Assembly (NCBI GenBank): GCA_965178125.1
Contig: OZ237756.1
Location: forward strand, 620,001-684,000
Direction of reading: 5' to 3'
Source: Bilabrum cf. latius
Lineage: Eukaryota
DNA: 64,000 nt
The position numbers were made by a program, and so were the translations under genes. This document shows, in pieces, positions 3,041-58,107 of this stretch (within the stretch, counting starts at the first letter, position 1; every line of letters begins with the position of its first letter). The notes below the pieces were generated by a model, which worked only from the letters and a program-made list of their open reading frames with translations, ran no database searches and was not told where the DNA came from.

Positions 3041-3070
3041 TCTAGTATATACTATACTAAAGATAATTTT

Positions 3071-3283: not shown

Positions 3284-3315
3284 TATTAATAATACTATAA
3301 TAATAAAATATATTT

Positions 3316-24480: not shown

Positions 24481-24521
24481 AAACGACACCTGCACGTGCG
24501 CCATCGAGACAGAGCATACGA

Positions 24522-27340: not shown

Positions 27341-27457
27341 AAAAACAAATTATAAATGTTTTCCAACTCCCTAATTAAAAACGCAAAAATTGATGGCCTA
27401 AAGTGGAAATGTCGTACCTTAAGCATAACTTACGTAGTCTATAGTACAACCACAAAA

Positions 27458-27697
27458 ATGGCAAAATCACAAAAGGAACTCGAGAATTACATCTTGGCGA
27501 CCAAAGAATGTCTTAAATCAGTCCCGTTTATTACAACACGAGAAGCATACGATATGGCCAAAAAGTACCTTGAATTTACAAAGACTATTATTTGGATTAA
27601 TTATGATGATGACGATGACCTGCTTGCTGACTTTGAGGAGGCTACAGATTTAAGTCAAATTGTAGTTGAATGGCACGAAAGTACCAAAACCAAATGA
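27458..27697 (+). CDS. Hypothetical viral protein, 79 aa
   Basis: ATG preceded by CGTACCTTAAG..TCTATAG motif; ends TGA. Confidence 0.6.
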   Translation: MAKSQKELENYILATKECLKSVPFITTREAYDMAKKYLEFTKTIIWINYDDDDDLLADFEEATDLSQIVVEWHESTKTK

Positions 27698-27762
27698 TTT
27701 TTTCCCAAGAATTATTTTCCCTACTTTACAAAAGTAAGGAGAATGATACAACTATATAGCAA

Positions 27763-28818
27763 ATGAGTAGCGCCTTTGAAAGAATATTACAATCCCTAAA
27801 CATTTATCCCAACAGTCGTATTGTAAATTTAATGAAACGACCAAAACGACCCAAAGGAGTAAATAGACCCCACGTAAATGTACCAGAACCTCACCAAGTG
27901 GTACAAATGGATTTATTATCATTACCCCACGACAAGAATTATAAATACGCATTAACCGCTATTGATTTACACACAAAGTAGGCCGATGCTGAACCGCTCA
28001 AAACCAAGCGTTAGAACGAAGTATTAAAGGCATCAAAAAAGATTTTCAATCGTGGAAATGTCCAGAAACCGCAGTACCGTTTGGAAATAGATAATGGAAA
28101 AGAATTCAATGCTTTACAAAGATATTTAGAAGAGACCGACGTATTTGTACGAAGAAATAAACCAGGTCGCCATCGTCAACAGGCATTAGTGGAAAACTTA
28201 AATAAAACGTTGGGAAAAGCCATATTTACCCTACAGAACGTAAATGAGTTAAATACAGGTAATGAAAGCGTAGAATGGGTGGATATGCTCCCAAACATCA
28301 TCGAAAACTATAATGAATATCAACTGGAAAAATATATGGAAGAACCACCTTTACCCCCAGAACACTTCGACTTTACGTAGTGCAAAGGAGACGCTTGTAA
28401 TGTATTGGAAGAAGGGACACGCGTAAGAATACCTTTAGAAGAACCCAGAAAGGCTACAAATTTACAGCAAAAATTATCCGGAAATTTTCGTGCTTCCGAT
28501 TTACGCTATAATCCAGAAATCAAAACGGTTACAAAAGTGTTATTAAGACCCGGACAACCACCCTTATATGTTGTGGATTAGGATGATTTAGTGGCTTATC
28601 CAAAAGAGGAATTACAGATTATCGACTTTGATAATGAGGACAATAATCGAGATGCTCAGACAATTTTTATCCCAAAAAAGATAAAATCCGAGAACGAAAC
28701 AGAATATCAAATAGAATGGAAAGATTTTCCAGAACCAGAACATTGGACGTGGGAACCAAAGAATAAAATCCAAGAAATTGCTCCTAATTTAATTTTGGAG
28801 TGGGATATAGAAAATTGA
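27763..28818 (+). CDS. Retroviral-type (rve) integrase with C-terminal chromodomain, 351 aa
   Basis: VQMDLL, EIDNGKEF, QALVENLNKTL (DDE); YQIEWKDFPE..WTWEP; internal TAG at 27979, 28012, 28378, 28579. Confidence 0.92.
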
Positions 28819-29062
28819 GATGCCCCGTATCGTACCTTAAGGATTATTTTCGTATTCTGATGCCAGAGTAAAAATTACCCAATCTCCGCCCCTCTCCTGA
28901 ACACAGAGAGGGTATGCGCGTCATCGCAAGCAATCCGTTGGCTTGGTCGCACCTTCCCGGTCGCAACCGCCATCGGAACCCAACGAGACGTTCACGCGCT
29001 CCCACTCTGGCATCAACACCGAACCCCATCCGGCGTTAGGATCATATAGTACAACAACAAAA

Positions 29063-30724
29063 ATGTCATTCACTCTGCCGACTAAAGCGTATTCGTCAAA
29101 AAGCCTTATGGACCTATGTAATGCCGGAAAACAAGAGGAATGTATTCAATACCTTAAACAATACTTCTACCGCACCCACGAGCAAGGTGGCGGGGTGTAT
29201 TTTCTAATAGCATCTGAATTAAATCGGAATAACATAAGTGATGACGAACCCCAGAAACCAGTCTGGTAGTTCCTTACGAATAAAAATATTACTGAAAATT
29301 ACCTGATTGGGGGACACTGTATATACGCGATTGTGGGCAACAAAAGAGTAAAGACTTGGTCAGCACGAGACTGGTTCTTAAATGAGAATACCGACGTATT
29401 TACGATTGTAAGAAAATTCAATTCACCTACCGTGGATTACGACAATCAAACAATTAACGTTATGGGTTCACCTATACTTACACGGGAAAACTGTGGAAAC
29501 ATAGAGGATTTATCCGAAGACGCAAAAGCAGGCGCGACTATGATTTATGAACATATCCAGAAGGTGTGGACTTCAGAAGACAAAGAATAGTGTGATTTTG
29601 TGATGAAATGGTTGGCTCACGTTATTGTGGGCGGAAAGAAGTTGGGTACAGCACTATATTTGAAATCTCCACAAGGAACTGGTAAATCGATGATTATTAC
29701 CTTCCTTATGAGAAAACTACTCGGATATACCCTTACACTATAGACGCTTACACACAAGATGCTTCAACCCGACGCCTTCAACTCAATTCTGGACGGGAAA
29801 CTATTAGTCAATTTTAATGAAATTCCAAAAGCCTCGCAAACTATTTGGGACGCCATGTAGGCAACGCTAAGAAATCTTATTACGGAAAAACACTTTTCAT
29901 GTAATGAGAAGTTTGTCAAATCCGAAAGTCGTCCCAATACATTCAATTTAATTATTGATACGAATGATAGTCCAATCAAAATCACCGAGGAAATCCGTAG
30001 ATATTGTGTTTTGGATGTGAATACATCTAAGAAAGGAGACAAAGAATACTTTACAACACTAAAACGTTTTACAGAAAATCCAGAAGTGGCTAAGGCATTT
30101 TATATGTTATTGGTTGAAATCTATGATACATCACCAGACTTTACAGGACAATTCGCACCAAAATCAAAGAATTTTTACAAAGGAATTCTTGATGGCGCAC
30201 ATCCGGTTTTAAAAATTCTAAAAGAAGAGTGGCTGGACGAAGGCAGAGATTTTAAAATGACAGTCTTGGAATTCCGCAATTATCTAAAGTAGGAACTGAA
30301 CGGTAGAGTGAAGAACCTTGGTACACCTATGATTAAAACACTATTGTCAGAGGTGGGTGTTCATTCAACGATGAACAAATAGAGAAAACAAGAATTTAAT
30401 GTGAAACACGCAGACTTACTAAAAGGCTTCCAATCTAAATTTTAGGCACTTCGTCATTCTGCTGAGATGGAAAAAGCAAAATCCGAGGTAGATGTTCTTC
30501 GAGAGTAGATAAGAGAACTACAGAAACAAGTCGCATAGCAGTAGGAAACGATTGAATAGTTGGAATTAGAAAAGGAGATTACACCGACGGAAAAAGTCCA
30601 TAAGAAAATCCAGAAACAGCTGAGTGTTGAGAATAGCATCGCTATTCAAAAATGGATAAAAGAGAACCCACCAAAGAACAAAAAAGGGAAACTTTCTAAA
30701 TTCCTCTGTAAAATTGAGAAGTGA
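29063..30724 (+). CDS. SF3/D5-like helicase, 553 aa
   Basis: WLAHVI..ALYLKSPQGTGKS (Walker A), LVNFNE, IIDTND, RRYCVLD; C-terminal coiled coil; only TAG interruptions, ends TGA. Confidence 0.87.
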
Positions 30725-30781
30725 GTGAGTTCATACCTTAAGAATAATTATCGTATTCTATAATATATTAGATACTATAGA

Positions 30782-32623
30782 ATGCCCGAAATCGATTTTA
30801 TGGAACCCCAAAGAACCAAATTGCGTCTTAATGGGAAACCAATATGGAGTATGCGATTTGAGAGCGAGGACCTTATCACCGTAAAAGATGTCTTGGAATT
30901 TATTCGTGATTACGACGATGGTGGTGAAAATCCGTTTGATGACTTTAAATTTAAGGTGAATATCAATTTTCAAGATACAGGTTGGCGAACAAGAAGCACT
31001 TGGATTACTACAGATGATTTAGAAAATCAAGATAGTTTATGGGCGGGTTACGAAGACGACGATGACGACGAATATAGAAAATTGAATTCTTTTGAACTAC
31101 TGCTTATTAGAAAGCCAGAACCAGAAGGCGGTGCTGACGAACATAACGATTGTTTATATAACGCTATAAAATAGGCTTTTCCTTTTTCAGTTGGTCGTAA
31201 GGTAAATGTAAAGAACGCAAAAGGCAAATGGAAAACTACTATTAAAAGATTGTCGAAGTCCGACCTCAAAGAACTCTTGAAAATTGGGCGTGATGACCCA
31301 ATCGATTACAGAAGAATACCAGAGATAGAAGACGAACTTGAATTACGCATTCATGTTGTAGGCGACTTTGAATACACATCTGGAAAAACTCATTTTGACC
31401 GTCTTCTAACTGTTTCATTAACAAATGGGCATTACAAGTATGTTCCCCCCATTAGTTAGAAAGAATTATTTACACCGCCGTCTAAAGAACCGTGTAGACT
31501 AATAACCCGCTTGTATCAATCCGAGAATTCTTATTTACTATTTGATGGAGACCGTGAATATCAATCAGAAGGCATTACATCGGTTTTTAAGGAGAATTTC
31601 ATCCTTGACGTTAAATCCAAGGAAGAACTACGAACAAAACACGAAGAACGGATGAAAAATGTAAGGGCTTTATCAAAGGAGACGGGTGGATATATGGATT
31701 TATCACGATTTATGTTTAGAACATCCCTATTTGTAAAGTCGTATTTCAGTAAGTTTTCCAAACTTTACCCTGCCGACCCGATTGACCAAGTTGAAGCACT
31801 ATGGATTTCTAAAGCCTCGGGTGGTGGATTGAATTGGGCAAACAAGAATACTACATTAAAAAACGCATACCAGTACGATATTAACTCATTTTATCCAAGT
31901 ATTATGAAGGGTACATTTACATTTCCGGTTAGAAGGGGTAAGTTCGTAAAATTTGAAGTACCTTCAAGTGGTTTCTATCCGTACGGCATTTTTAGGGTAC
32001 ATATTGAAAATATCAATTCTAAATTGGTACAAAAAAGAAAAAACAATTATTATACTCAATATGACATCAACCGAGCGATTGAGACGGGCGCTTAGGTGTC
32101 ACTTATTGAAGACGGAGAAGCCAACGCTTTACTTTACGATGAGACAACAAGGGTGAAGGCAAATGGACTTTTCAAAACGATGATTGAGCGATTGTACGGT
32201 TATAAAAAATAGGGATTGAAGTGTGCGAAAGAGATACTGAACAACATCTGGGGTTCTCTATGTTAGAAAAACACAATCACAAAAACACTCCGAGATGGTG
32301 ATTGTATGAATTTTAGACAATTAAAGAACGCGTATCCTAAAGCATCTGGACGACTTGTATCGGGTACACTCTATGACGAAGAGTACGATTACAAAACAGC
32401 CTACGCAAGAATAGGTCCCTTTCTGACTGGACTTGGACGAAGTAAATTGTCCAAAATGATTGAGCCATATCTTGAAAACATTCACTATGTCAATACGGAT
32501 GGTTTCATTAGTGAGAAAGAATTACCTCTAAAGTTGTCAACGAACCTTGGGGGTATGAAGTTGGAGCAATCAGGTGAATGTCAAATTATTCACAGTAAGA
32601 AGAAACTTTTTAGAAAAGATTGA
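30782..32623 (+). CDS. Protein-primed family B DNA polymerase with N-terminal TP-like and vOTU-like domains, 613 aa
   Basis: YDINSFYPS, AKEILNNIWG, YVNTDG; GGADEHNDCL and LTNGHY; five internal TAG. Confidence 0.9.
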
Positions 32624-32624
32624 A

Positions 32625-32897
32625 TTAAATAGTCTGTTTTTCCTTAAGCTTCTCAATTTCCTGTCGCAAACTATCAAGTTCATCCATTATGTTAATTTGT
32701 TCCCTTTTTGTGTCTTCCTCTTTTTTAAGCCAATCAAGGTGTTTTTTTGTTCTACAATGATGTGATTTATTGTACTTCTTATATACGCCACCACACGAGC
32801 ATTGTATCTACTCGCCAAGTTTTCCCTTATTTTTCCGGTAGTATTCACGGGCATACAGCTTATCCTGTTCTTTTCTTTCTGAATGACTGAGTGTCAT
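32625..32897 (-). CDS. C2H2-type Zn-finger protein, 90 aa
   Basis: YAREYYRKNK..IQCSCGGVYKKYNKSHHCRTKKH; one TAG; ends TAA. Confidence 0.75.
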
Positions 32898-32933
32898 TTT
32901 TGTATTCTATAGTATTATACTATAGAGTTAGAT

Positions 32934-34139
32934 TTAAGTATCGTAGGCAAATATTTTCCAAGCCTGTTTTAGGGCATTCTTCTTGGATATTCCTTTTCCT
33001 CTTAAAATGGACGCCATTTTCATAACTCTTGAACGTTTGGTTTCACACTGACATTGACCTCCAAATAATTCCAGATACATACCCGATACTGGGTCATTCG
33101 TATGCGAATGGATTTCTTTCATAATTGGTTTTCCAACTGTTTTAGTTGCTAAATCCCAACCTTCCTTAAAGTCTGTTCCAAAATCCCTTTCTGTGTTCTA
33201 CTTATGCTTTTTCTAATTTTTCATTAAGGCGTTTCTGACATCTTCCGGTAAATCATCTAAACCTCTCCCGAACCATTTGGAAAAATACCCAGCGACGTCA
33301 GTAGCAGCATTAGCCACTCTCTTAGTAAATCCCGATACACTCTTAGCAATACTCTCTACGTCCTACATAATAAATTGGTTTAAGGGTGGTGTCAAAAACC
33401 CATTTGTGCGCAGAACATCTTGGATAAATTTTTGGCAGTTCAGACTAAAAGCACGGTACTGATAAAAGTTGTATTCTCCAATTTTCTGTAAAGTGGTCTC
33501 AAATAATTCCCTTACTGTTTTCTGAGGTTTTCCATTAATATTTACTTCCATAGTTTGAGTTTTCTTGTTGGTGGAAAATCGTGGGGACAAATTAACCCTC
33601 TCATTCTTCTCAAGATAAATCTTTTTTCCACCTCCAAGGTTCAATTCTAAGGCTAAATGGAAGAAATCATTATATCCGTGTTTATTTTTTAGTTTTTTCA
33701 TTTTTCCCAAGGTTATCCAGTTGAGTAACCGATTAATCGCACCACTAATAGGGGTTCTAATTACTTTCATAGCAATGATTGTTCTATCCCCGTATTGTTG
33801 AAGATTTCTCTGGACTTCGTTTGTATTTCCATACACTACTCCACCTTTAAGCTGTTGCGCCAGCTAACTGCGCCGAGAGGGGGTGCTTCGCAAACCATCT
33901 TTTAAATATTTATGAAGTGTGTTGGATTGTGTGGATTTCTTCTTGGATTTCTTTTTGGGTTTTCCTTTTGTTCCCAGACCATCTTCAAACTTAATTGCTT
34001 TTTCAAGAGCTTCTTTAGAATAAGGATATTCACTTCTCCAAGTCCTTGTTGTTTTACTCTTTGGTTCTTTCACACTAATGTACGTCTTAACAAAACCAGA
34101 ATTCATTTTTCCGCCACTAAGTGTATAAAAACTATCCAT
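32934..34139 (-). CDS. Protein with permuted papain-like (PPPDE/LRAT-type) domain, 401 aa
   Basis: Three ORFs in one frame joined by TAG; FFHLAL..LEKN and YQYRAFSLNCQKF. Confidence 0.65.
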
Positions 34140-34164
34140 TTAGTATAGGCTTGTATTAAAAAAC

Positions 34165-34782
34165 TCATAGACGACTTCCAAGACCGAAGGTTTTCCGGAC
34201 GAATTCCTCCAGTTGCTAAAAGGATGAATAGACACAGTACTAACTCTAATGTAATCCAGCGATTAAATTCGTTCTTGAGCGTTCCACAGACAATAAGTCC
34301 CCCGATTTTTTCCCTTCACGGATTTCCTCAAAAAGACTGTGAGAAGGCACACACACAAAAATTGAACTTTCCTTAAATAAATCTTTCGCTAATTCCAACG
34401 AACCAACCATAACAATTAAACGTCTGGATTTCTTCGTGAGCCAATCCGCTTTAATTTTTTCATACACTAATCTTGATTGGGAATAATAAAAGAGGCGGTG
34501 GGTACTTTCATCACCGTCAACCAACATTTTCTCCATCTTTTGCTTTTCCTGTCCTGAAATTTGAGCATTTACACACTCGTCTAAATCAATAATTAGCGTA
34601 TCCTTATCCACCGCTTCTAGGGAACGACATAACGTAGTTTTACCGCTTCCTTTTGGAACAACCACGCACGATTTCTGTTTCTAAGTTCCGTCTTTCGTCC
34701 ACCAAGAATACAGACACTTGCTTCCTGTATAAGCTAAAGGGGCTAAAGTCCCAGCAACCATTACAGCAGTTGATACTGACAT
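34165..34782 (-). CDS. P-loop (kinase-like) protein with hydrophobic N-terminus, 205 aa
   Basis: VVVPKGSGKTTL..IIDLDE; same-length homolog at 61572-62189. Confidence 0.75.
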
Positions 34783-34837
34783 TGTTTTGATATACTATAT
34801 ACCAAGACAAATATTTATTGGTTTACCCTTTTCATAT

Positions 34838-36604
34838 TCACTGCTACAACATTGCGAGTAGTTGGTTACGAGATAAAGATTTCCCACCTGTTAAGCCCGA
34901 GCCTAACTTGGCACCTGTTAAGCCCTTGCCTTTCTTGGTAGTTTTTCGGGGTTTCCTTTGGCGACCCATTCCAGCCATTTCACCCACCATTTTAGCGGTG
35001 TCAAATACCTACTTACCATCCTTTAATACTTTTTTGAGATTGCCTTTCTTTACCCAATCAGCGGTTTTGTGTGCGAACTTTTTTAAGGCGTGTCTAATCT
35101 TTTTACCAAGACCCCTACCGTGTAGTCCGCTTAATTGACTTTCATATACTACGGGTAATTTAGAGGCGGAAAGAACATCTGCCCGTGAGATGACACCCTG
35201 CTAATACTCGAACTTAGACCCATCAATCAAATTTAATACTCCTTCGTATAATCCAATCACAACACACTACACATTATCGTAGCCCACATCATCATTATTC
35301 TTCACTCGTAGGGTTATAGACAGTTGGTTAGACCCGTTGCTACCATTTGTCTAATCCACATCTAAGCTTAAGTCCTTGGCGGGGTCAATACATAACAGAC
35401 CACCTGATAGCACCCTATCCCCGAATTTACGCATAGCCCATTCATTATATTGCTATTCAAGTCCGTTGCTTCTGGATAAGTCCCATAACTGCTGTGGCGA
35501 TGCGTCGGCGAGTAATCCACTATGGTTATTCATCTCTATACTAATTCCATCAATTGCCATGAATGTGTTTCCCTAATCTACTGAAAGGGTTGTAGGTGAG
35601 CGACGGGCAAACACAAATAAACGACTTGGAACTGAATTACTAAGCTTAATATTGTTATTGTAAAGAGTTGCTGTAGTACCTGCGGCAATTGTTGGACTAT
35701 GACTTTGGGTATACGAAGTCATCTCAAAAATATCATACGAGACCTATTTAGGAAGCACAAATCCTGTTTTAGGTGTAATCTATTCAAGGTATAGGACTGG
35801 TTCTTGGACATCTACCGACTAAATGGTAGCAGTTAAGCCCTATTGTGGAATACGAGACCACACGGTTCTACTCAGTTGAGACCAATTAATATTTAAGGAG
35901 AGTGTTTGAATTCCGTATATAGCCGTTTGTTCCTATTTACTTTCGTAGTGGAAAGGTGGACATAATACCGCCTCAGTGCATTCAAAAACAAGAACACGAT
36001 TTTGAGTTTGACCTGCGGGTACATCAGTATTATCCATTTGATACAAATTGTAAAATCCACTTCCTCGGGCTGGTTGGTCCTAAAGCACGTCCTCATACGA
36101 AGCAAGAGCGTTATTCGTAGACTAACTCATCATCGCGTATGAAGGCACATTATCGCGTCTATACACACTATCAAGGCAATTCACACGGTGGACATCATCA
36201 TCTAGTAAATGGGACAGAGCGTCCATTAGTTCGCCGTTGTTCTGGGTATAGCGAAGGTTATTAATGCCAACTGTCTATGTTGCGATGGAGCGATTAAGTG
36301 GATAGGAGCGTGGAGCATCGTAATCTGGTCTAAAGGGTGCTAGACCACCTGCGGTTTGATTATTCACGGAAAAGGTGATAGAAAATCGGCACGAGACATA
36401 GGCACGACGGCACAAACCTACACCTGAAGGCATACTAATATTCCAGTTGACCCCGCTGTTGTAGTTTCCGGCAGACCCGGAGGGGTTATATTTACGGAAA
36501 GTCCGGTTCTCATAACCTTCTTGAACTTCATACGGCTTCGGTTGTACATCTAGTGTTGCGGGTGATACTTTGACTGGCTGAAGGGCAAAGGTATTCAATG
36601 ACAT
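34838..36604 (-). CDS. Virophage major capsid protein (double jelly-roll), 588 aa
   Basis: YPLNR, NALASYED..ARG, EAVLCPPF, GIQTL, MNNHSGLLADASPQQLWDLSRSNG, GVISRADVLSA, basic Gly-rich tail; about 15 in-frame TAG, no internal TAA/TGA. Confidence 0.92.
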
Positions 36605-36709
36605 TTTTGTTTTCCTTGTATATTATATACAACGAATAAAATTCTATCACTCAGTTCTTTAGAAAAGAACGCAAACTCGTTTCTTCATAAAAGTAATACA
36701 AAACTAATT

Positions 36710-37819
36710 TCACTTCCGTTTCTAAATTAAAAACTTCACACTCACACTTCCGTGGCGTAAATAAAGAGGTCTTAGATTTGAATAATTATCTTTCCAATAA
36801 AGATTAAACTAAATCCTATCTACTGAATGTGTATCTAAAAAATCAATTTCGTGGAGAATATGGGGCTAGTATTGAAGAACCTGCTAATTCACTGTTTCTG
36901 TATCATCTAATACACAGTCCATATCCACTAATAAACTCTCGGTCCCTGAACCTGAATTCTAATCTGTATTTGTGGATTGTCCATAGGCGGATTTCTAGGA
37001 TATTGCCTCACTCCTCACTGGAAGACTTGAAGATGTGAAAACTATTCCGCGAAAAATCTAAAACTACACTAAACTCCCTCGTTCCTAGGTCATCATTAAT
37101 CTGTAGTCTCCCGTTGGGTTTCCCTCGAAGTATGCCTAAGGTTCATATTTTCCAACAGAAGAGCCATCATCGAATAAAACATTGGTTCCTAGGGTTTTGA
37201 ATAGAATACTGGCGTATAAGTCGTCATCTTGGATATCCATTCGTTCCATAGGAAAACCCGTCATCAGTTCGTTAAGGGCTTCATTCAACACTAATTTAAA
37301 TTTTTGTCCTGAGTTTTCCTCGTCGTAATCGGGATTTGCTACTAAACTGAACTTTCCATCTTTAAAGAGTAAAACCGGAACTGATGTAATATCCGCTGAT
37401 AAAGCATTCTATATGGTTTCGTTGAATAAATCAACAAAATGCTACACGGAATACATATAATAATAAGGAACAAACTACATAGGATTGGAAAAAGATGGTT
37501 GGTTTTCCCCTGTTAACTAGGGTCTCCATATAATACTTTCCGTCCATAATTGTACTCCACTTTCATCTGTAATGCTTATTCTATACACCGTTTGATTAGG
37601 ATTTGAAGATGGATTTTTCACTTTATCGGTTTCTATGTGTGGAACCCATAAAGGTATTGAATTGGTGCTTATGGAAAACCTGAACACTGACATCGTATAA
37701 TCACCAACATCCTTATCTAATAATGGCTACTTGCGGGTTTCGCTATAGGTCGCTGGTTGGAAAGTATCTTCGTTATTTCGTATGTTTGCGGTAATGTAAA
37801 ATCGGTCTGGAGAACTCAT
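36710..37819 (-). CDS. Virophage minor capsid (penton) protein, 369 aa
   Basis: YSETRK-PLL..DYTMSVFRFSI..IPLWVP; LYWKD..SVKFL C-terminus; directly upstream of MCP. Confidence 0.87.
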
Positions 37820-37875
37820 TTTACTATAGAGGCTTATAATTATGGGGTGGGTTTGATTACTTTTCTAAAGTATAA

Positions 37876-38367
37876 TTAAGATGGTGTAATAAGTGAACCT
37901 GACACTAAGGATTTCCAACTAGATGTAGAAGAACTGCCAATCGCCACATAGACATCGTTGTCGCTTCCATTATACACTAAAGCCCCCTTGAACTTTCGCT
38001 CTGGTGACGTATTAATTGGGACAGAAGCATCAGCAAGCGTTGCTCCAGCAACCTCACTCAGCCCAACGACACCCTCTTGAGAAGTCTTGAATGAACCAAC
38101 TAGTGAAATATCGCATCTTTCTCCTTCTTCGCTCATACTGAACTGACAACCAGCAGACGCTCCGTTTTTCCCAAATCGTAAAACTGTGTCTCCCCACGCC
38201 ATATATGGTTCTCCGTCCGTGAACTCAATACTTGGATTGCCTATGACTGCTCCCGTAGAGTTAGTAATTGCGGACACTTTAATTGCGTCGCTACTCACAA
38301 CATTACACGTAATAGTTTGAGACATAAGGTCTAGACTGTTCTTAGATAGAAGATTTGAAACTGACAT
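37876..38367 (-). CDS. Putative fibre/structural protein, 163 aa
   Basis: Shares LRFG.N.ASAG...S..E.G..CD with 45991-46512. Confidence 0.6.
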   Translation of the reverse strand: MSVSNLLSKNSLDLMSQTITCNVVSSDAIKVSAITNSTGAVIGNPSIEFTDGEPYMAWGDTVLRFGKNGASAGCQFSMSEEGERCDISLVGSFKTSQEGVVGLSEVAGATLADASVPINTSPERKFKGALVYNGSDNDVYVAIGSSSTSSWKSLVSGSLITPS

Positions 38368-38407
38368 TTTATAGTATATCCACAGAAATAATTTTTATCA
38401 GGTTGCG

Positions 38408-39481
38408 TCAATCTTTTCCTAAAAGATGTAATAGTTCCATAGCAACCTAATGATGAATATCTTTAGTGGTTCCTTTTACTTTCTTGGCTACATTCATTGC
38501 TGTATCATAGATAATCCTTTTTCCACCTCGTAATCCTTTTCCGGTCTTCTTCTTCTTTTTCCCTCTTGGTTTTCCTATCGGTATTCTACTTTCTTTTACA
38601 GACATAGAACCAGGTTGTGCTATTCCGTGCGGTGGAGAAAATCCGGTAAAACGTTCTACAGGTTTGCTTGCCCGTTTTCCCAAGTCCATTTTCGGCCTTT
38701 CCGTTGGACCTCCCTCGGGTCTGTATCGTTTTCCCTCTCTTTTTTTAAACATCGGCGAACCTTCCCAAAACCCGGGTGGTCTTGCGGGACTTTTCCAAGC
38801 AACTGAGGTGACTTTTTCTGTTGTTGTGTCGTCGTCGTCAATAGCTTGCCCCCTTTCTTCTCCTTGTATGCTCCTTAATAAATCATCCACTTCGCTAGTT
38901 TTACTTTTGGATGACCCACTCTGTTCTGGAAAATGTTGAAGTAAAGATTGTTGTCCATCAGTTCTCCGTGAGAACTATTGTCCCTATTCTTCTTCCAATA
39001 TCCTACTTTGTTGCTATGAAAGTGGTTGTCCTTTGGAAATCCTTTCGCGTGCTCGTCGTAAAATTTGACCTCTCTATCTCCTGTTTAAACTCTCTGTAGA
39101 ATTTTCTAATTCTCCAAAATCTTCTTGAAATGTGTTAGTTGTTGGTGTTCTCATAGGTGTTTGCTGGAAATCAATTCCCAACATTCCCTACGGTATTCTT
39201 TTTCCGGATGCGTCCTAAATAACTTTTCCTAATTCTAAGAGTTGTTTTCTATCCTCAGCTGGAACTCTCTGCAGTCCTTCGTATCCTTTCCTTTGAAACC
39301 TCTCTATGTTAACGTATTGACGGGCGAGTTGTTGCTTCATTTGTGGAGACATATTGATATTACCAACAAAATCCTTTAACGCTTTCACGGCTGGCTACAC
39401 GTTCTTTCCCTCAATAATACCTTTCATTATACCAGATATTGATTTAGATATGATTTCCTCGTTGCTTTGGTCTGCCTATTT
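38408..39481 (-). pseudogene. Large low-complexity (core-like) protein of element 2, 5' truncated at the element 3 junction
   Basis: Frame open (TAG=Gln) up to the C7 run at 39482 with no promoter or start there; weak similarity to the N-terminal part of 59448-61526. Confidence 0.6.
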
Positions 39482-40018
39482 CCCCCCCGCTACGGTAATA
39501 AATAAATTTATTCCCTTCGGTTAAGGAAACAAGTTTCAATAGTTCCAGTCCATCAGAGCTAAAGCTCTTCAGTCCGTTCCACTCCTTTTGGAGCTAGTCG
39601 CTCCAAAAGTCAAGGTGGTCCTCTTCATACTGCTACTTCATATAACTGCTTTATCCTTCTAATTATATAAAATCAATTATATATAAAACTCTATACGATG
39701 ACCATATCCATAAATTGCGTATTAGTATATGTAAGTTCTAATCAAAACGTGGATGTAGCCCTCTTGTGAAGGTGTTATGGGACTCTAGCCATTTTCTAGC
39801 CAAAAGTTCCATCACTTTATGGGACTCCATTATTCAACCTTCTAAACTACCTTCATTATACCCCCTTATCCTCGCTTATACCTTCACAAATGGAACACAC
39901 GCGCTACAGCAACTTGCTACACTCGTCATCGCAATACCACAAGCGCCACAGTTCAATACACCCCGGAACGATGACGCTGTAGGCCAGCTGATCACTTCAC
40001 CAGCCTAAAACAATAGAT

Positions 40019-40711
40019 ATGGACCGCAAGATTGAGGTAAGAATCCACAGGATAGATAATCAACATATGGAAATTGCTTTGCTGACCGTATCTGTATCTA
40101 TCGCACCGGTTTTGCTCGCCAACGCAGCTCTTCAAGCCCGACCAACGCAAGAAAACGGGAACGGAAGCGCTACTCACCTTCCAGGACACCGTACAAACCG
40201 AGAAGAACCCCAAGAAGCTTTTGAAAGCGCATTCAAGGCTACTAGGGGACATGCACCTCGTTGAGCAAACCGGGAAGTCGCTGGAGAAGGCAATTCGGGA
40301 GGCGGTCGGAGCATTGGAACCGACAGGCGTCAACTCAAAGGCTCTACTCGCTGTTATCGCTTCAATATTCCCCAAGGGGAGTCTTGACGATACCGATGCT
40401 GACTTTGACCGGATTAATGGCGTGCTGAAGATTCTACATCACGGCAGAGATTACGCGGAGACGAGGCAGACACAGGCGTTCTTGGCACAGAAAATGGCTA
40501 TCCTCAAGCCATTTCTTCCAGCATATGACATCCCATCGCTCGTTGGTGATGTTTTGGAGAAGAACCAGAAGAGGAAGCGCCGCCAAGACTTCAACAAGTA
40601 GCTTCTTCTGGAATCTGGCATCGCCGCACCAGCCAAGCGGTTTCGCGGCAATGAGAATCTCATCCAGGACTATCCCCGGACGGCGGGTTCTTAGCCCAAG
40701 ATGGAGAAGTA
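40019..40711 (+). CDS. Intron-containing hypothetical protein with NLS-like motifs; intron 40037-40127
   Basis: MDRKIE then GTAAGA...GCTGACC...CGCAG joins in frame to ORF 40221-40601; two TAG read through; ends TAA. Confidence 0.62.
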
Positions 40712-40895
40712 AGAAGGTTGAACAACCTTTTTTATTATAAATTGTCGTGTTTGTTATTGGTAGGGACACGGCTATATTGGAGTGGCCACGCTGTCGTGTG
40801 TAGCAGGGTACGAACCGTGCTTCCAGCATTGACACGGGTGGAATCCCGCATTGAAGAGCATTTCAATGTTTCATTTGTGGTCTCAGTCAATCCAA

Positions 40896-41363
40896 TCAAT
40901 CCACACGCATCACCACGTATCCATTTTGCTCGCTCGTGCTCCCGTCGTAGCTGTTTAGAAAATGTCCCAGCCCGTCCTCATCTTTACAGGCCTGAATGAG
41001 GTCGTCCCAGCGCCCCTAAGCCACTATAAATGACTTAAGAAGGGCGCTTAAAGCCTCGCTGTGGTTCGCGTCAGCGGTAGCGGTGCTTATGATATCGGCA
41101 TCGCAAGGCAGGAAGCGCGAGAGGAACGCAGGAACGAAGGAAGCAAGCGTCTCTGTAGCGTGGTCGTCCAAACGTTTGTCTGCTTCTTCTTCGGTGATAA
41201 TCTCATAGGTCTGGATTTCCTCGCCTAGCTTCACCGTGGCAGTCTCGCCGTCAAAAGATTGAAGAACCCTGTCCCACTCCTCGCCCACTGCTCCAATGTC
41301 TTCAATACCAGCAATAAGCGCCTTCATTACTTCATCATTAACATCTGTAGAAACCCCGGCCAT
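40896..41363 (-). CDS. Acidic hypothetical protein, 155 aa
   Basis: MAGVSTD...; TAG 41016 read through gives DEDGLGHFLNSYDG; ends TGA. Confidence 0.7.
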
Positions 41364-41675
41364 TGTTTTATGTGTTTTATGTGTGGTCCAGATAAATTTT
41401 GGCGTAGCACAGGTTCCGAAGATGAAGATGAGAAGGTGGTAGACGATAGCCGATTCCAGTGGTAGCAGTGAGAAGTTCCAGCACGAGGAAGTGATGAAAA
41501 TGTAGGGCAGGAGGGTATAAACTGACGGATGGAACCGCAAAGGAAGGAGAATTGGATTGAATAATTGAAGCCAGACCCATAACCCTAGCCTATAGGCTAG
41601 GGATAACCCCCACATAACCCCCCCACCTCTAAGCGTTTTTTTAAAACTCAAAAATTATAACTTAGTATTATAGAT

Positions 41676-42446
41676 ATGAACTTTAATAATTATGTCATTG
41701 AAAATCCCGTCCTAATGAAGCAGATTTATAAGGCTACAGACCATATTACAGATAGTACGCAAAAAATTTTAGAGACCATTACTACGTATGTAGATTTAGG
41801 TGGAAGGTTTTCCACGTCTAAATTAATTAATAAAAATATAGTTAGTGATATTAAAGAGAAAAAAGCCGTCAAAAAACCCAAGAAAGAAGAGAAACAGAAG
41901 ATACAACACGATAATAACGACCAGCTTGAAATTAACCAAACATACATTCTAGATAAATTTAATGACTATAAACCACAGAATAATAAAATTTATAATGATG
42001 TAGATGATTTACAACCGCCAGAATTAATTAGATAGACCGCAATAGATGAAAAATTTACCGGTATGGAGCCTGACAGTGAAAGTGAAATAAACAGCGTTAG
42101 TACCGAACAAGACTAGATAGAAGCAGAAACTGATGATGAAATGATACCTGAGGAAGAGAAAAAAATAATAGGTGATTTAATTAAATTAGAGAATCAGGAT
42201 TATAGGTATAAAGTGTCCGTAAATGGAAATGATGTATTTTTTGGTGAAATTAATTTACCCGATGTAGAGGCTCTTAAGAAATAGTTTAGCCCTCGTAAAT
42301 TACAAATTATGATTTGTAAAATTAAAAGAAATTTTAATATTAATAATAGCGATGATATAAACAGCCCTGAGTTTTGGAATAGCCGTGTATATTTGACCCT
42401 TGATGTGAAGGCCGAACACGAAAAACTACAAGATATCTATAATTAA
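41676..42446 (+). CDS. Hypothetical protein, 256 aa; C-terminus resembles that of 46566-47273
   Basis: VFFG...DINSPEFWNS versus VHFG...DYKSPAFWSR; ends TAA. Confidence 0.65.
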
Positions 42447-42809
42447 AAGCCCCTACAACTTAATAAACGGGCTAGAATTTAATAAAATATTTTAATATAA
42501 CCGCTATATTAAAATCTATACGATGGCTATATCCACAAATTGCGTATAATTATATAGTATTTCTAGCAAAACGTGGATGTAGGGCCTCTTGTGAAGGTGG
42601 TATGGGACCTTTAGATAATTTTTAAAAATAGTTCCATCACTTTAGAAGGTGTTAAAATACACCATTCATATCACAATCTATTTTTTAGGGCTAAATGGCA
42701 AAAATCACCTTTTACCTTCATTAATTATTATAGCCCCTTTAAGCCCTCTATAATTAAATATGGCGTTTAAAATAGTTTAAAAATATATTTCTAATAATAT
42801 ATATAGAAA

Positions 42810-45587
42810 ATGAATAATAAAAACCTCGTTAGTTTCCCCATCAAGCACAATCAAAAAATACCTGATGTTAAAAGCTGGCGATATCTCACCAAACCCGAGC
42901 CTAAACGATTTAATAATCAGAATATGGCTATTATCACCGGAGAAATTAATAATATAACCGTGTTTGATATTGATTCATATAAATGGAGCGATAAGAAGGA
43001 GCATTTATTCATCAAGAAATTTTCAGATGACTTTGTGAAGCGGTTCAACACATTCACGGTTAAAACAGCGGGTGGAGGGTATCATCTATATTTTAAATAT
43101 GATTAGAATATATTAACTACCACCAATAGAGATATTGACGTTGATATTAGGAATGATGGGGCTTATGTAGTGGCACCACCAAGTGGCATAAATGGGTCAA
43201 AATACGAAGTTATTAATAATGTAGAAATAAAAAAATGTCCTAAGGAGCTTTATAAATTTTATGAAAAGTATATTATTAAATCCTCTAAGAAATCCAACGT
43301 AAAAGGGGCGAGTAAAAGGATATCAAAAATTGATAATCAAGATGTGAATAACTGTATGATGAAATTCATTTTAAATGGTAAAGACTGGTCAATTATATTA
43401 AATAGACTAGATAAGAAATATTTAAATAATTATAGTGATTGGTATAAAGCAACCCTAGCGAGTAAATATTTAGGATTTAAGAAGGAATGGTAGGAGTGGA
43501 GCAAGAAGGGCAATAAATACGACTACCACAAAAATAACAAGGTGTGGAACTCTATCCATTATTTTGATAAGTTAAAAACCTTTAATTTAGTTAATTCAAT
43601 AATTTAGAATGATAAAAGTTTAAAGGCATTTGTGAAGGATAAGTATATTTCAAAGTGTTATTATCGTCCTTATGACGAGAATATTAACGGGTATACAGAA
43701 ATTAATAAACCTAAATTAGATGATATAGAGAAGCCCGAACGATTTTTTAAATATGAATATAATTATGTGGTAAAAAGTGATACAGGAACAGGTAAAACAA
43801 CAGCATTTAAGAAATACATTAAACAGGTTCAAACGCCGTTCTTATCCATTGTATCCCGTGTATGTTTAGGCACAGAGCAATACGAGAGCTTTTTAAATGA
43901 AGATATTAAATGTGAGTTCTACCAGAATAAAACTTTTGATTTTGGATAGTCTCTTATTATTACGCCGGAAAGTATCCCCCAAATTGTGAATTATGATTTT
44001 TCTAAATACATCGTATTCTTGGATGAATTCAATAGCATTATAGAGCATATATTAAGTTCTACTACGATGAATAATAATAGGGTTCTTGTATTATTTATTA
44101 TTTTAAAAATGATAAGGACGTGTAAATAGTTTATTGCTGTAGATGCTGACATATCCCAGATAGCGATGAAATTTTTAAAATGTGCTGGAGTAGAATTTAG
44201 CTTCATTAAGAATAAATATAAGCATTTTAAGGACGTAAAAGTATATTTTGAAAAAGACCAATAGAAATTTTACGATAAATTAAAAAGTGAAGATAAATTT
44301 ATACTGGCGTGTGATAGCAAGAAGAACGCAGATACATTTTATAAAATGTTATGTAAAGATGGTATAGAGGACGTTAAATTAATTACTAGTGATTTATTAC
44401 CTGATGAAGATGTGAGCTTAGATAAATATGATAAAATTATATTTAGTCCTAAAGTCATTTACGGATTAGATAGTGTAATGGAACGCCCAGTGTATGGATT
44501 ATATAAAGGAAAAACGATTCTACCGCCGTAGATGATGTAGCAACTGGCAAGATGTAGAAATCCCGAATATATGAATATATATTTTGAAGATGTAAAATCC
44601 ATTTATCCAAGATATGAGAATTTAAAGGAGGTATAGACGACCTTAAATATGGAAATTAACGCATAGACAGATTTATATACTAAATTAGAAAAATACGAAA
44701 AAAGGATAATGTAGGAGAATGATATTGACATTGATATTTTTGAGGGAGAAGATGATGAAGAGATAGCCCATAAAGCAATGATAGAGGCATCATACAAGGT
44801 TTATTTACCACTCAAGAAATTATATAATTTCAAATGTGATACATACGAAACAAATAAATATATTCATTTATAGCTTATTCTTAAAAACAGGGGTGCCGAT
44901 GTATAGGTGGATAAGGAATTACCACAACGAATGAATAAATAGCAGATGAAAGAGGCGACAATGGAGATACTACAAGAAAAGATTGATTCATTTGATGTAG
45001 AGAACGACCATATAAAAAGAAGAATTGAAATTTTAGGGCTACCAGAGACAGCCATAACGGAGGATATTAAAATGTTATTAATTGATAATTACAAATTAAT
45101 GAATTATTTTAATTATGCTAATTTCAAGAGAAAAGATAAATATAAACTAATGACAGAATTAAAGGATAGAAAGGATTTTAAGGATGAGAAAGCAAAAAGT
45201 ACAAAGAATAAAATAATCATATTATAGGAGATGTTATAGACGCTTAAATTGAATAAATTTGATTTAAGTTATACACGTAAAAATGAGAAATCCATTAAAT
45301 ATATAGAAATGGGTAAAAGATATGTAGAAGTAAGCGGGGCGAGATTATAGAAGCCAATAGAAACCGATAGTGAATTACACGGGGCAATCGTAAAATTATA
45401 TAAGTAGTTATTTGGAAATATTAAAACCTCTTGGAGTATGGGAAATAAAAAGGATAAAAAGGATAGAGAATTAAGAATTAAATTCACCAAGGAGAAAGAA
45501 TTATTTGATGAAGTTTATAAATATTAGTATCCCGAAATGAAGGACGTATACAAGGAATCCAACGAACGATTAGATTAGAATATTTAA
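42810..45587 (+). CDS. Prim-Pol primase fused to SF2 (UL9-like) helicase, 925 aa
   Basis: NMAIITG..VFDID, GGYHLYF, VKSDTGTGKTT, VFLDEF, QLARCR; colinear with 242-3040; ends TAA. Confidence 0.9.
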
Positions 45588-45990: not shown

Positions 45991-46512
45991 TCAACCTTTA
46001 ATAACCATCCAATTAGCCGACCAATCATTAGAGGAATTACCACCCGTTAAATGAATCGTAAATCCATCGGTTCCTGCTACTACGTGGGAAAATTCAACCG
46101 GCTCACTGGCGGGGGTGATTGTAGTAATAAAAACCAAATCACTAGAAGTCATACCCGGAACACTAGCAAATTCAGTAGCACCTCCACCACTCCAATTTAC
46201 CCTTCCTTTATGCGCTACGGTGTTATTTGCTACTACTTCACCTTTTACGGTTAAATCACATTCGTGACCGTCTTCATCAAAACTCATAACTAAACCAGCA
46301 GATGCGGTATTGGCACCGAATCGTAAAGCTTGACCCGAAGTGATGTAAGAAATACCCTTACTGTCAAGATGTAATCCTGCGTTGCTAACAACTACATCAC
46401 TACTATTCACAACAGCATTTACATATAGACCACTACTATCTAATCTACCAGTTGCGACATTCTTACATTGAATAGATATATCATTAGGTTGCGATAATCT
46501 TGCTAAGCTCAT
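45991..46512 (-). CDS. Putative fibre/structural protein, 173 aa
   Basis: Homolog of 37876-38367 with a different C-terminal domain. Confidence 0.6.
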   Translation of the reverse strand: MSLARLSQPNDISIQCKNVATGRLDSSGLYVNAVVNSSDVVVSNAGLHLDSKGISYITSGQALRFGANTASAGLVMSFDEDGHECDLTVKGEVVANNTVAHKGRVNWSGGGATEFASVPGMTSSDLVFITTITPASEPVEFSHVVAGTDGFTIHLTGGNSSNDWSANWMVIKG

Positions 46513-47467: not shown

Positions 47468-48967
47468 TCAAAGCATTAAACCGCCTTTTTTTCCTTTCCT
47501 TGATATAATTTCTTCTTTTTCATTTACGACCATTAAATCATTCTATCCGTGGATAATTAATTTCTATCCTTCTTCATTTATCTATTCTTTTTTATATTCA
47601 CCTAATTCTTTACCTACTTTAAAATTTAATCTTTTGTTAAATGTGATACTGTCGGTGTGAATTCGTATAATATGTTTAGCGTTGTTCTTATTCACTTTCT
47701 TCATCAATCGTTGTCTTCCATATGCCAGAATAAAAGGTTTCAATTTTCCCCAGCTATATTTAAAGGGTACTTTATGTTTTAAATGATAAATAAATTCTCC
47801 GTCATTATCCATTTCTACACGGTCAATATCAAATTTATCTATATTTATTTTTTTATCGTCTTTTGATGTAATTGTCTTTTTAGAGGAACTACATAATTTA
47901 CCCCATAATGAATTTAATATTTCTTTTGCTAGATATGATTTGCTTTTTAATTTGTAGAACATTGAGACATAGGATTTAAAAAGTGTTTCACTTTTGATAA
48001 ATTTATCATAGGTCATAAAATTAAATTCGTCGCTTGACATCTCTATCTCACAACCATATTTAACAAACATATTCATATCTGTAAAGACATAATAAGTAAA
48101 TTCATTTTCAAATACCTTCATCATTTGAAAGATATTCGGGTCGCATTTTCCACGGCTTACCTTACATTTATAAATCCCTATTTCGTTTTTATTATTAATC
48201 TATTTATTATCAATTGTTTTATAAATAGGATTTCCATATGGTAGTAGTGAATTAGATGACATAATGGCGGGGTAATGACTATTTATATCGTAGGTGATAA
48301 ACTCCTCATATTGTCCCTTCTTGTGATATTGAATCCCGCCACGCGTTGAACCTTCAATAAATACCGCTTCCTCTGGGGTTATATCTGGTGGGCTATCTAT
48401 CATCATATTAAACATTGTAAAGAAATGAAGGGCTGTTTGTCTGATTCCATATTTCATTACATCTAATGATGGGTTCTCGTCGTGTAATTCATCACTTGCT
48501 ATACTCAGCCTTAAGCTCCATTCTTTGATATCTTCATCCTCTGGGCATTCGTGAATGGTGTAATGAAGATAATATTTCTTTGAATGATAATCGGTTAGGC
48601 TCTCAACTCTATATTTATCTTTTTCAATTATTTCGGCTTTATCGGTTAATTTAACAACCATAGATTTATGGCACCGCACAAATAAAGGTTTCATCCTCTA
48701 GACGGCTTTAAATGAACCATCTTTATATTCTAAACAAACCCTTTTAAAACTCTTTTTTTTCCTACTTAGATAATAGACCTTTATATCGTCTTTCTCTCTA
48801 ATCTCTATATCCATTTTTAAACCTGAAACAAGTTTATAAAGGTTCTTTGTAGTTATGGGCTTACCGTTAAATACCTTTTCTAGATACTTCACGGATTGAA
48901 TGGGGTTATCATACTTTTTACCAAAGCATATATTTAATTGATTTAACACATTTTCGTAATTTATCAT
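47468..48967 (-). CDS. Short protein-primed PolB, 499 aa
   Basis: TYDINSHYPA, AKEILNSLWG, RIHTDS; three ORFs joined by TAG; ends TGA. Confidence 0.9.
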
Positions 48968-50025: not shown

Positions 50026-50347
50026 ATAATTTAATATTTATACTAATATTAAATATGATATCTTTATTAATAGTTGAACACCTTGACCATCTAATAAAAG
50101 GGCTAGAATATTAAAATATATATGGTTATCTCTATAATAAAATCCATACGATGGCTATATCCACAAATTGCGTATTAGTATATGTATTATTTAGCAAAAC
50201 GTGGATGGATTAGTTTTATGAAGATGATTTGATTGATAACGTATTTCTAGCCCAAAAGTTCCTTCACTTTAGAAGGTTGTAATATAGCCCCTTCTGACTC
50301 CCATCATCAATATGTTAAATATTAATTTTATCATTAATATCTAATTA

Positions 50348-50899
50348 TTATTTACCAATATGACATTTATAACAAATTGAATATTTCATATCTTTAATTC
50401 TAGACACTCCGCATTTTTTACACGCCTTTTTTCCATATTTTGTAATCGTATAACAAGACTTACAGGTTGTCCTCCAATCACCTCTAGCCATTTTACAAAG
50501 ACACACATCACATCTTTTTTCATTCCTCTTTTTTTCCTCTAACTTTTTCTATTTCTTTTCTAACTCAATATGTCTTATTCCTTCACAGTGCTTATTATAT
50601 CGGTCTCTTGCGACATCCTTTTTACATATTCCACACCACTAATATAAACATTTTTTACGAATTTGATTTTCTTTATCCTTTATCATCTACTTTATACAAC
50701 TAGAACCCACTTTAAAAACATATCCACTAGGGGTATGCTCTATTTCGTGCTCGGTTCGTATCTCGTGCCCACAAATACAATTACCCAATTTATCACCTTG
50801 AATAACGGTTGAGCCAATATGAATTAATTTCTTCTAAATGTCCACCCATTTTATATTACCGGTATGTTCCTATATTTGTTCAATACACTTTTTACACAT
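50348..50899 (-). CDS. Cys-rich multi Zn-finger protein, 183 aa
   Basis: CICGHEI...VGSSCI and several CxxC pairs; open only with TAG=Gln. Confidence 0.7.
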
Positions 50900-50905: not shown

Positions 50906-51720
50906 TATAATATCTATATAATATAATCTTTAAGTCATTTTAAACGCGTTATATTATAAAAAAGGGGCTTAAAAATAGACACTATAGAAATAGATGATTA
51001 TATTAATTAATATTATTAAAATATTAATTAATTAGACCGGTTAAATAGTTCTTTGGAAAGTATGAACCTACTTTGAAAAGTATGAACCAACTTCGGAAAG
51101 TATGAACCTACTTTGAAAAGTGTGAACCAACTTCGGAAAGTATGAACCTACTTTGGAAAGTATCATTCACAGGTCATATATTTATTTAATATGTATAAAT
51201 AAATAATAAAATGATTATCTAGAGACATCTATTAAATATTTGTTGAAATACGTGCCCACTATTTTATTATACTACTTCAAATGATACAGATACAGCGTCT
51301 TAAATTTATTATTTGTTTGTTTTAGACTGTCAAAACAACCATTTATATAACTTAGATATCTACTGTTTTCATCTGTGTCTTTATCCAAAACACAATCAAG
51401 TAATCCCATAGTTGTTTTCACATTTTTATAAGCGTTTAGATAATTATCATAAAAGTCTAATAGGTCTTCTAGTTCAGTTATATGATAATCTTTAGATTCT
51501 TTCTTAGTGGAGAAAATAGTGCTTTCCGTTTTCTCACGCTTTATAAAAGCCTCAGTCATTTTTTCTTCTTTTTTAAAGGCAATTTTGATTTCTTTTGATA
51601 CGAGTCTATAAAAATTGTTCATTGTATCATAATAATTATCCATTGTGTGTATAATATCTATATAATATAATCTTTAAGTCATTTTAAACGCGTTATATTA
51701 TAAAAAAGGGGCTTAAAAAT
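50906..51720. promoter_or_regulatory. Duplicated 71-bp bidirectional promoter-like block (50906-50976, 51650-51720)
   Basis: Identical copies with AAAATGACTTAAA on the minus strand and GGCTTAAAA on the plus strand. Confidence 0.65.
51215..51643 (-). CDS. Hypothetical protein, 142 aa
   Basis: ORF 51272-51643 extended through TAG to TAA. Confidence 0.6.
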
Positions 51721-58015: not shown

Positions 58016-58107
58016 TATATATAATAATAAAATAAAATAAACCATTTATTCACACGGGTTTAAAATATTAAGTTGGTTCCTTCTTCTATCCTTCCTCACA
58101 AAAAAAG

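Follow-up and report, generated by a model that had tools for sequence, protein, structure and literature searches.

A spliceosomal intron in a two-gene cassette of host-like composition between two integrated virophages of Bilabrum cf. latius

The stretch of DNA analysed here (the window, 64,000 nucleotides in length) comes from the eukaryote Bilabrum cf. latius and corresponds to positions 620,001 to 684,000 on the forward strand of contig OZ237756.1 (GenBank assembly GCA_965178125.1); all coordinates below are those of the window. It contains DNA of three virophage elements, referred to as A, B, and C, and, between B and C, a short GC-richer cassette, or island, of two convergent genes. The rightward gene of this cassette, which carries a spliceosomal intron, is the subject of this report. 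The original prediction had described it as a provirophage gene and candidate latency gene that may be expressed from the integrated state by host RNA polymerase II (Pol II). Its parts are as follows.

About 40007 to 40036, plus strand: exon 1, a short leader and then coding sequence from the ATG at 40019 through the GAG at 40036 (MDRKIE)
40037 to 40127, plus strand: intron of 91 nt, phase 0, GT-AG, with a GC content of 0.44 against 0.53 in the coding sequence
40128 to at least 40806, plus strand: exon 2, 194 codons with a TAA stop at 40710-40712
40599 to 40601, plus strand: first in-frame TAG, read as glutamine
40692 to 40694, plus strand: second in-frame TAG, read as glutamine; the coding GC pattern persists after the TAG
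40713 to 40806, plus strand: minimal 3' untranslated part; a public contig (run X2, below) reaches 40806

The 91-nt segment is a genuine U2-type GT-AG spliceosomal intron, located after codon 6 of a 200-codon gene. It starts with GTAAGA at 40037, contains a candidate branch point (CTGAC, 40082-40086) 42 nt upstream of the 3' splice site with pyrimidine-rich sequence after it, and ends with CAG at 40125-40127. The length of the intron is not divisible by three (91 mod 3 = 1), and a TGA at 40083-40085, in the downstream frame, cuts off the long frame before position 40086. With the intron left in, the ATG at 40019-40021, which has A at -3 and G at +4, leads into an 81-codon out-of-frame open reading frame (ORF), so the long protein requires splicing. 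The spliced coding sequence is 600 nt long and comprises 200 codons free of stops. All of the landmarks named in the original prediction were located in the sequence: the ATG at 40019, MDRKIE, the GTAAGA..CTGAC..CAG series, the TGA at 40083, and the KRKRR and PAKRFR motifs of the product. The sequence alone does not single out this intron. As many as 57 GT..AG models with an in-frame ATG can be drawn within 39850-40250, among which the 40037-40127 model has the best donor; it is public contigs that lift the case above chance.

Eight public runs from three studies contain the stretch, none of them recorded as RNA, and the contigs of four runs (X1, X2, X3, and X5) were compared with the window over 36000-44000. 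An X1 contig of 577 nt (record 6) matches 40007-40034 and 40126-40674 with no mismatches, the comparison being annotated 'skips 91, GT..AG (cut +2)', which places the joint at 40036|40128. An X2 contig of 698 nt (record 9) covers 40126-40806, preceded by 17 letters equal to 40018-40034, and differs from the window at 40711 only. The corresponding contigs of X3 (record 14, 39868-41628) and X5 (record 22, 39777-41607) are unspliced and retain the 91 nt; these two runs are taken as genomic because all 30 bins are covered and records exceed 200 kb. Given the joint in the X1 and X2 contigs and the 91 nt kept in those of X3 and X5, the intron is real and the coding sequence has 200 codons. The 40036/40128 junction, which the original prediction had singled out as the thing to look for, is present in two runs, with the 91 nt missing to the exact base.

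We read the joined X1 and X2 contigs as RNA-derived, because the contigs lie wholly within the stretch without unlike flanks and because contigs stop 12 and 7 nt before the ATGs of the two cassette genes, each at TAAAACAAT. This 9-mer has five matches in the window against 1.19 expected, a count reached in 0 of 100 shuffles, and the X1 contig start at 40007 falls within the copy at 40006-40014; as the position of a transcript start, that contig end is a weak hint. Automated labels, themselves guesses, call X1 'RNA? (probably DNA)' and X2 'RNA?'. Even if X1 and X2 were DNA, a base-exact, frame-keeping deletion running from GT to AG would mean that the segment is an intron. No X1 or X2 contigs lie on 36000-39470 or 41607-44000, where the capsid and other virophage genes are found, which is not evidence that those genes are silent.

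The frame of about 194 amino acids given in the original prediction is indeed open downstream of the intron, but it crosses the TAGs at 40599 and 40692, which that account omitted. TAG is a sense codon in host nuclear genes and in all three virophage elements, with TAA and TGA as terminators. Under the standard code, the AT-rich parts of the window give only 6 stop-to-stop frames of at least 200 codons, whereas reading through TAG gives 24, which tile the AT-rich DNA. Reading through TAA gives 19 (13 above the 6 of the standard code), but TAA was rejected as a sense codon because all 29 virophage genes obtained by reading TAG terminate in TAA or TGA. Treating TGA as sense was likewise discarded, having gained few extra ORFs. 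Across their 10,715 codons, the 29 genes have 171 TAGs in frame, and they stop at TAA (16) or TGA (13), and the Pfam capsid domains extend across in-frame TAGs. In the host DNA, an OGFOD1 orthologue (Pfam 2OG-FeII_Oxy_4, E 6e-30) aligns with human OGFOD1 (4nhx, E 2.4e-45) across three in-frame TAGs, and a Ubc-type gene continues for about 140 codons beyond a TAG, into a hydrophobic tail. Three genes in which TAG is sense serve as examples.

9852 to 10538, plus strand: gene with TAG as sense
5987 to 7462, minus strand: gene with TAG as sense
34838 to 36604, minus strand: gene with TAG as sense

Aligned homologues suggest that the residue inserted at TAG is most likely glutamine, in the host and in the virophages. 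A public major capsid protein (MCP) that is 97% identical (P0004) has glutamine at 13 of 13 aligned TAG columns, while three homologues with 42-61% identity have it in 14 of 41 TAG cells, glutamate coming second with 6. P0003, the homologue of the neighbour gene in the cassette, has glutamine where that gene has TAG. Among 27 paralogue columns at TAG, glutamine occurs 5 times, glutamate 4 times, and aspartate 3 times. No tRNA genes (such as a CUA suppressor) or Rfam families were found within the 64-kb window. With UAG most likely read as glutamine by host and virophages alike, standard-code gene calling breaks up almost every virophage gene.

The translated frame of the spliced gene can be followed in the GC content at codon positions 1/2/3. 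This is.56/.34/.68 in 40128-40250 (the 41 codons before the ATG at 40251),.59/.35/.61 in 40251-40598, and.61/.44/.67 in 40602-40709 (the 36 codons after the first TAG), against.55/.33/.43 in the intron and.44/.52/.32 in the 3' part. The coding pattern is the same in the three exon 2 segments, and neither the intron nor the 3' part nor the upstream region shows it. In X2, X3, and X5, a G replaces the A at 40711, which changes TAA into TGA, so the stop is conserved. The codon-position pattern and the conserved stop favour a translation start at 40019 and read-through of both TAGs. A start at the internal ATG at 40251, the counter-case named in the original prediction, is disfavoured, as the 41 codons upstream share the pattern. 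The gene limits proposed there (40019-40711) are right for the start, but their end falls one base short of the stop.

The product is best described as a basic, predicted all-helical orphan with motifs resembling a nuclear localisation signal (NLS). It has an isoelectric point (pI) of 9.67, rising to 10.2 in its 55-residue tail, and carries KRKRR and PAKRFR near the C-terminus. With TAG as glutamine, a spacer of 17 residues separates KRKRR from KRFR and exceeds the 10-12 of a textbook bipartite NLS. A single-sequence AlphaFold2 model predicts seven helices at low confidence, with a predicted local distance difference test (pLDDT) score of 51. In a search of 1.84 billion representative proteins, two scored E <=0.001. 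P0002 is a 78-residue fragment, 53% identical to exon 2 residues 69-146. The other, P0001, is a tandem-repeat protein aligned in 8 short stretches, and was set aside as doubtful; it is the only match to the N-terminal part. The protein has no Pfam family (E up to 10) and no PDB sequence match, and among PHROG families it has no relative of weight, the one weak match being phrog_29728 (E 0.03). A word-based search gave 0 matches among 147 candidates.

The second gene of the cassette converges on the spliced gene.

39906 to 41582: GC-richer two-gene cassette of about 1.7 kb, from the GC profile; the whole span is present in X3 and X5 contigs
40896 to 41363, minus strand: convergent neighbour gene, 155 codons, acidic product (pI 4.1), one in-frame TAG

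An X1 contig of 491 nt (record 7, 40880-41370) covers the neighbour gene from 7 nt before its ATG, starting at the second TAAAACAAT. The single homologue of its product, P0003, is 68% identical over 155 amino acids, the full length. P0002 derives from one contig of 1680 nt, as does P0003, so this contig is very probably common to both, and the two genes are very probably conserved together on a piece of DNA of about the island's size. The homologue search called for in the original prediction thus returned one homologous gene pair but nothing beyond it among IMG/VR viral contigs and JGI metagenome contigs, where neither island gene has a relative. Comparison of the predicted neighbour fold with the PDB was uninformative by Foldseek (best E 1.1), as was a wide VIA-align search (best Z 6.0; ArdA Z 3.7).

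The GC-richer island reported around the gene was confirmed, with a GC content of 46-55% against 30-40% in the flanks. GC content at third codon positions (GC3) is 0.64 in the spliced gene and 0.57 in its neighbour, compared with 0.60-0.79 in 6 host ORFs and 0.17-0.39 in the 29 virophage genes. Upstream regions of the virophage genes are AT-rich, with a TATA-rich run just before nearly every ATG; those of the island genes are GC-richer, have no TATA-rich run, and end in TAAAACAAT. The spliced gene therefore has neither the element-type promoter nor the base and codon composition of the virophage genes.

The GC profile and ORF maps divide the window into four segments, to which the genes and repeats of the elements can be assigned.

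1 to 5058: AT-rich segment, the end of virophage element A, with a Prim-Pol protein (Pfam)
5059 to about 26000: GC-rich (about 60%) eukaryotic host DNA
About 26500 to 39900: segment of about 38% GC, virophage element B
About 41600 to 64000: segment of about 30% GC, virophage element C
27670 to 39427: genes of element B, encoding an rve+chromo integrase, DUF5906 helicase, pPolB-like protein, P-loop protein, MCP, penton, and three unknowns
41676 to 64000: element C, which runs off the window, with a Prim-Pol/helicase (Pfam) and paralogues of the MCP, penton, pPolB, and integrase of B
39640 to 39900, plus strand: copy of a repeat of about 170-250 nt at the left island border
42461 to 42667, 50092 to 50294, and 56138 to 56346, minus strand: other copies of the repeat, within element C
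41583 to 41602: 20-nt perfect palindrome, the left end of element C and right border of the island
Upstream of 47468 to 48967, 49480, 50348 to 50899, 51215 to 51643, 51748, and 242 to 3040: GCGTTTAAAATGACTTAAAG-like motif

The host DNA contains intron-bearing genes for a thymidine kinase, an OGFOD1/Ofd1-type oxygenase, a TPM-RING protein, a kinase-Armadillo protein, and a Ubc-type E2, among which just two introns could be deduced as a reference (8184-8366 and about 15851-15960). Near element B, the host DNA also carries a 115-nt tandem repeat in about 31 copies, 86-98% alike (20450-24100), and a 39-nt tandem repeat in about 15-20 copies (24400-25200). These repeats fit an integration region that is rich in repeats and possibly heterochromatic.

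The flanking elements combine a V20-type MCP with a V18/19-type penton, and all three elements of the window are taken as Sputnik-like virophages. With TAG read through, Pfam matches in element B include MCP_V20_C (E 9.5e-26), Sputnik_MCP_1st (E 1.2e-23), and penton V18-19 (E 3.4e-07); the DNA_pol_B_2 match is weak and below the Pfam cut-off, and a 205-residue P-loop protein matches AAA_24 weakly (E 0.0028). Alignment of element C with B gave 139/568 identical positions for the MCP and 71/298 for the penton. By eye, the element C ORFs at 56945-58045 and 56361-56936 resemble a packaging ATPase and a cysteine protease. With the element B MCP as single query, no related loci were found. Two TAG-free genes, 37876-38367 (minus strand) in B and 45991-46512 (minus strand) in C, encode proteins of about 165-173 amino acids without a family match, which look related by eye and have a G..LRFG.N.ASAG-like motif in common. 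In X3 and X5 contigs, 629 nt are skipped at 38539-39169, inside the element B gene at 38408-39427, indicating that other B-type copies exist with a deleted or variant form of this gene. A conserved motif of about 22 nt (GCGTTTAAAATGACTTAAAG-like) occurs about 40 nt before the ATG in genes of elements C and A, besides the TATA-rich run, and probably represents an element-specific promoter class of giant-virus type.

Elements B and C are arranged tail to tail, each having its integrase at the outer end (27670, plus strand; 62226-63383, minus strand) and the cassette between their non-integrase ends. The end of element A is a hairpin with arms at 4960-4977 and 5041-5058, and host DNA starts directly at 5059. 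On the right of the island, X3 and X5 contigs end and restart at 41599-41628. The repeat at the left has three strongly conserved blocks and an imperfect hairpin, and lies between genes of element C as well as left of the island. The predicted hairpin shows no covariation (0 of 28 pairs with compensatory changes), and the repeat has no Rfam match. X1 contigs also cover the repeat copy, at 39482-39905, and 39905 is where records of X1 and X5 break off or depart from the window, one X5 record continuing into other AT-rich sequence. A search of the window for this loose end gave no match to a 30-mer and 4 two-mismatch matches to a 14-mer (0.90 expected). No inverted terminal repeats enclosing the island were found within element B.

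Two alternatives concern the transcript and its translation. The joined form might be DNA, either an intron-less allele or processed copy, or the 91 nt might have been inserted recently in the lineage of the window. This would fit the 'RNA? (probably DNA)' label of X1, the 51.5-kb length of the longest X1 record, and the fact that no run containing the stretch is recorded as RNA. We nevertheless consider it very unlikely: both joined contigs and the neighbour contig are confined to the stretch with no unlike flanks, they stop no more than 12 and 7 nt short of the respective start codons, and they break at the 3' intergenic gap in spite of having 0 or 1 differences from the window. Moreover, a precise frame-keeping loss of a GT..AG segment is the signature of removal through RNA. 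It is also improbable that the transcript is spliced but the long protein not made, with translation beginning at the ATG at 40251 (153 codons) or ending at the first TAG, or with the RNA being non-coding or decaying. The homologues cover nothing before exon 2 residue 69 apart from the doubtful P0001, and the protein belongs to no Pfam, PDB, or PHROG family. Set against this, the ATG at 40019 is the first in both joined contigs, has a good sequence context, and falls in frame only once the intron is removed. Further, the codon-position pattern persists before 40251 and beyond the TAGs, the stop at 40710 is kept as TAA or TGA, and TAG is a sense codon in the host.

The explanation that we favour for the locus as a whole, with a little more than even confidence, is a host-type spliced gene in a cassette of host-like composition between two provirophages. 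As to the origin of the cassette, resident DNA of non-virophage origin, from the host or from another small insert, caught between two insertions comes close to an even chance, virophage cargo is a lesser though substantial possibility, and a separate small mobile unit is the least probable. The description of the gene as a provirophage gene was not borne out, the island being bounded by the element C palindrome and by the repeat end on the B side and neither of its genes being related to IMG/VR viral contigs. In its full form, the cargo explanation would make the cassette the right end of element B, a latency or lysogenic-conversion module transcribed by Pol II, spliced, and expressed when integrated, while replication and capsid genes await giant-virus transcription factors. 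This we regard as rather unlikely, though a good deal speaks for it. Virophage DNA lies on both sides of the cassette, here and in the X3 and X5 contigs, the latter including record 22, which reaches the island out of a variant form of the virophage-associated repeat, and element B is short without the cassette, at about 13 kb. The neighbour gene has phage relatives by structure and by hidden Markov model, the island genes share a leader motif resembling the CAAAACA-ATG leaders of three element B genes, and precedent exists in punuivirus, an endogenous giant virus of Chlamydomonas reinhardtii, whose latency genes are described, in the part of the work available, as rich in spliceosomal introns (10.64898/2026.10.09.758095). 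Against it stand a GC3 and promoter type unlike those of all 29 virophage genes, the lack of relatives for both island genes among IMG/VR and JGI metagenome contigs, and the missing terminal inverted repeat around the island within element B. The right border also coincides with the palindrome that ends element C, in the same way as host DNA adjoins the element A hairpin at 5059. Several observations weigh in turn against a non-virophage origin of the cassette. The left island border is a repeat otherwise found only inside element C, and the only homologous pair sits on a contig of roughly the island's length. The model of the neighbour protein (pLDDT 61) resembles uncharacterised phage proteins (BFVD E 5.4e-5, 28% identity), the gene has a weak phage relative (phrog_15770, E 0.0027), and the A/C-rich leader of the island genes recalls those CAAAACA-ATG leaders. 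Against the favoured explanation more generally, the candidate branch point sits rather far from the 3' splice site, and the predicted model of the spliced gene's product is poor. X1 and X2, both RNA by guess, belong to one study and so count as one independent source, and the contigs do not reveal transcript starts, ends, strand, or level.

Under the favoured explanation of a host-type gene, the best reading, and a well supported one, is that transcription and processing take place in the nucleus by host machinery. The gene would be transcribed by host Pol II, from a promoter that is not of giant-virus type, and its transcript spliced by the host spliceosome. Host Pol II expression, as originally predicted, is in keeping with the GT-AG splicing, the GC-richer island, the missing TATA-rich motif, and the host-like GC3, but the RNA status of X1 and X2 is a guess. 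The small, basic, helical product may then enter the nucleus via its C-terminal KRKRR...KRFR stretch and may work jointly with the acidic protein encoded by the convergent neighbour, as conservation of the genes as a pair suggests. Our working guess is that the protein is a DNA- or chromatin-associated nuclear factor. A more tentative proposal is that the cassette is packaged cargo of a two-tier virophage genome, in which giant-virus-type promoters, driving replication and capsid genes, are combined with a host-mimicking, nucleus-spliced two-gene module. The module would have host codon composition, a leader of host type, a spliceosomal intron, and UAG=Gln codons, and would be transcribed in the host nucleus for as long as the element is integrated. 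On that proposal the nuclear basic protein and its acidic partner might manage the state of the provirus or benefit the host, which is similarly doubtful.

The literature searched, much of it in excerpt, yielded no virophage gene reported to have a spliceosomal intron and nothing on virophages of hosts with reassigned UAG. By analogy, punuivirus appears to be the closest counterpart of the cassette. In the available part of that work, host-like GT-AG intron genes are expressed without virus production beside replication and structural genes with AT-rich promoters, the virulence genes using a viral promoter (10.64898/2026.10.09.758095). The scale differs, since punuivirus has 506 genes, 61 of them intron-bearing, and is documented by RNA-seq, N6-methyladenine (6mA), and single-cell data (10.64898/2026.10.09.758095), whereas the locus described here has a single intron, in one of the two genes of a 1.7-kb cassette of debated ownership, among virophages of about 13-22 kb.

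Mavirus and the endogenous mavirus-like elements (EMALEs) of Cafeteria burkhardae, as presented in the sections of Hackl et al. 2021 drawn on here (PMC8547959), are likewise integrated virophages, AT-rich, equipped with an rve integrase, and surrounded by a GC-rich host genome. They have conserved promoter motifs directly upstream of ORFs, and GC-rich inserts interrupt or adjoin the elements. These inserts, however, are 6-kb Ngaro retrotransposons with reverse transcriptase (RT) and tyrosine recombinase (YR) genes, neither of which is present in the cassette. According to the same sections, no EMALE gene has introns and mavirus provirophages are silent until infection by Cafeteria roenbergensis virus (CroV) (PMC8547959). 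The virophages as well as the polinton-like viruses (PLVs) of Halocafeteria seosinensis are clustered or nested, and the text excerpted describes viral DNA as an insertion hotspot (10.64898/2026.07.28.741278), which would account for two elements flanking a short piece of other DNA. Expression of endogenous virophage genes is very low in that host, and the excerpted text differs from our case in mentioning neither a variant genetic code nor a spliceosomal intron in an element gene (10.64898/2026.07.28.741278). Introner transposons are reported from polinton-like proviruses of dinoflagellates. Provirophage genes of Bigelowiella are reportedly transcribed. Prophage 'morons', or lysogenic-conversion cassettes, are small, autonomous units of odd composition, sitting at one end of the integrated virus, that have their own promoter and are expressed when integrated. 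The likeness to these holds only if the cassette is cargo, and they are bacterial and lack introns.

Integrated virophages are regarded as silent and intron-less, and as woken only by giant-virus transcription machinery, a view found in the consulted sections of Hackl et al. 2021. If the gene described here is indeed a spliced, nucleus-expressed gene of a provirophage end, it would be the first sign of virophages using the regulatory language of their host, as was recently described for an endogenous giant virus. If the cassette is instead trapped host DNA, the analysis still yields exact models of two orphan genes that look unannotated. In that case, too, it would still be established that UAG stands for glutamine, as the alignments most likely indicate, in the host and in its virophages, and that standard gene calling fragments the genes of these elements.

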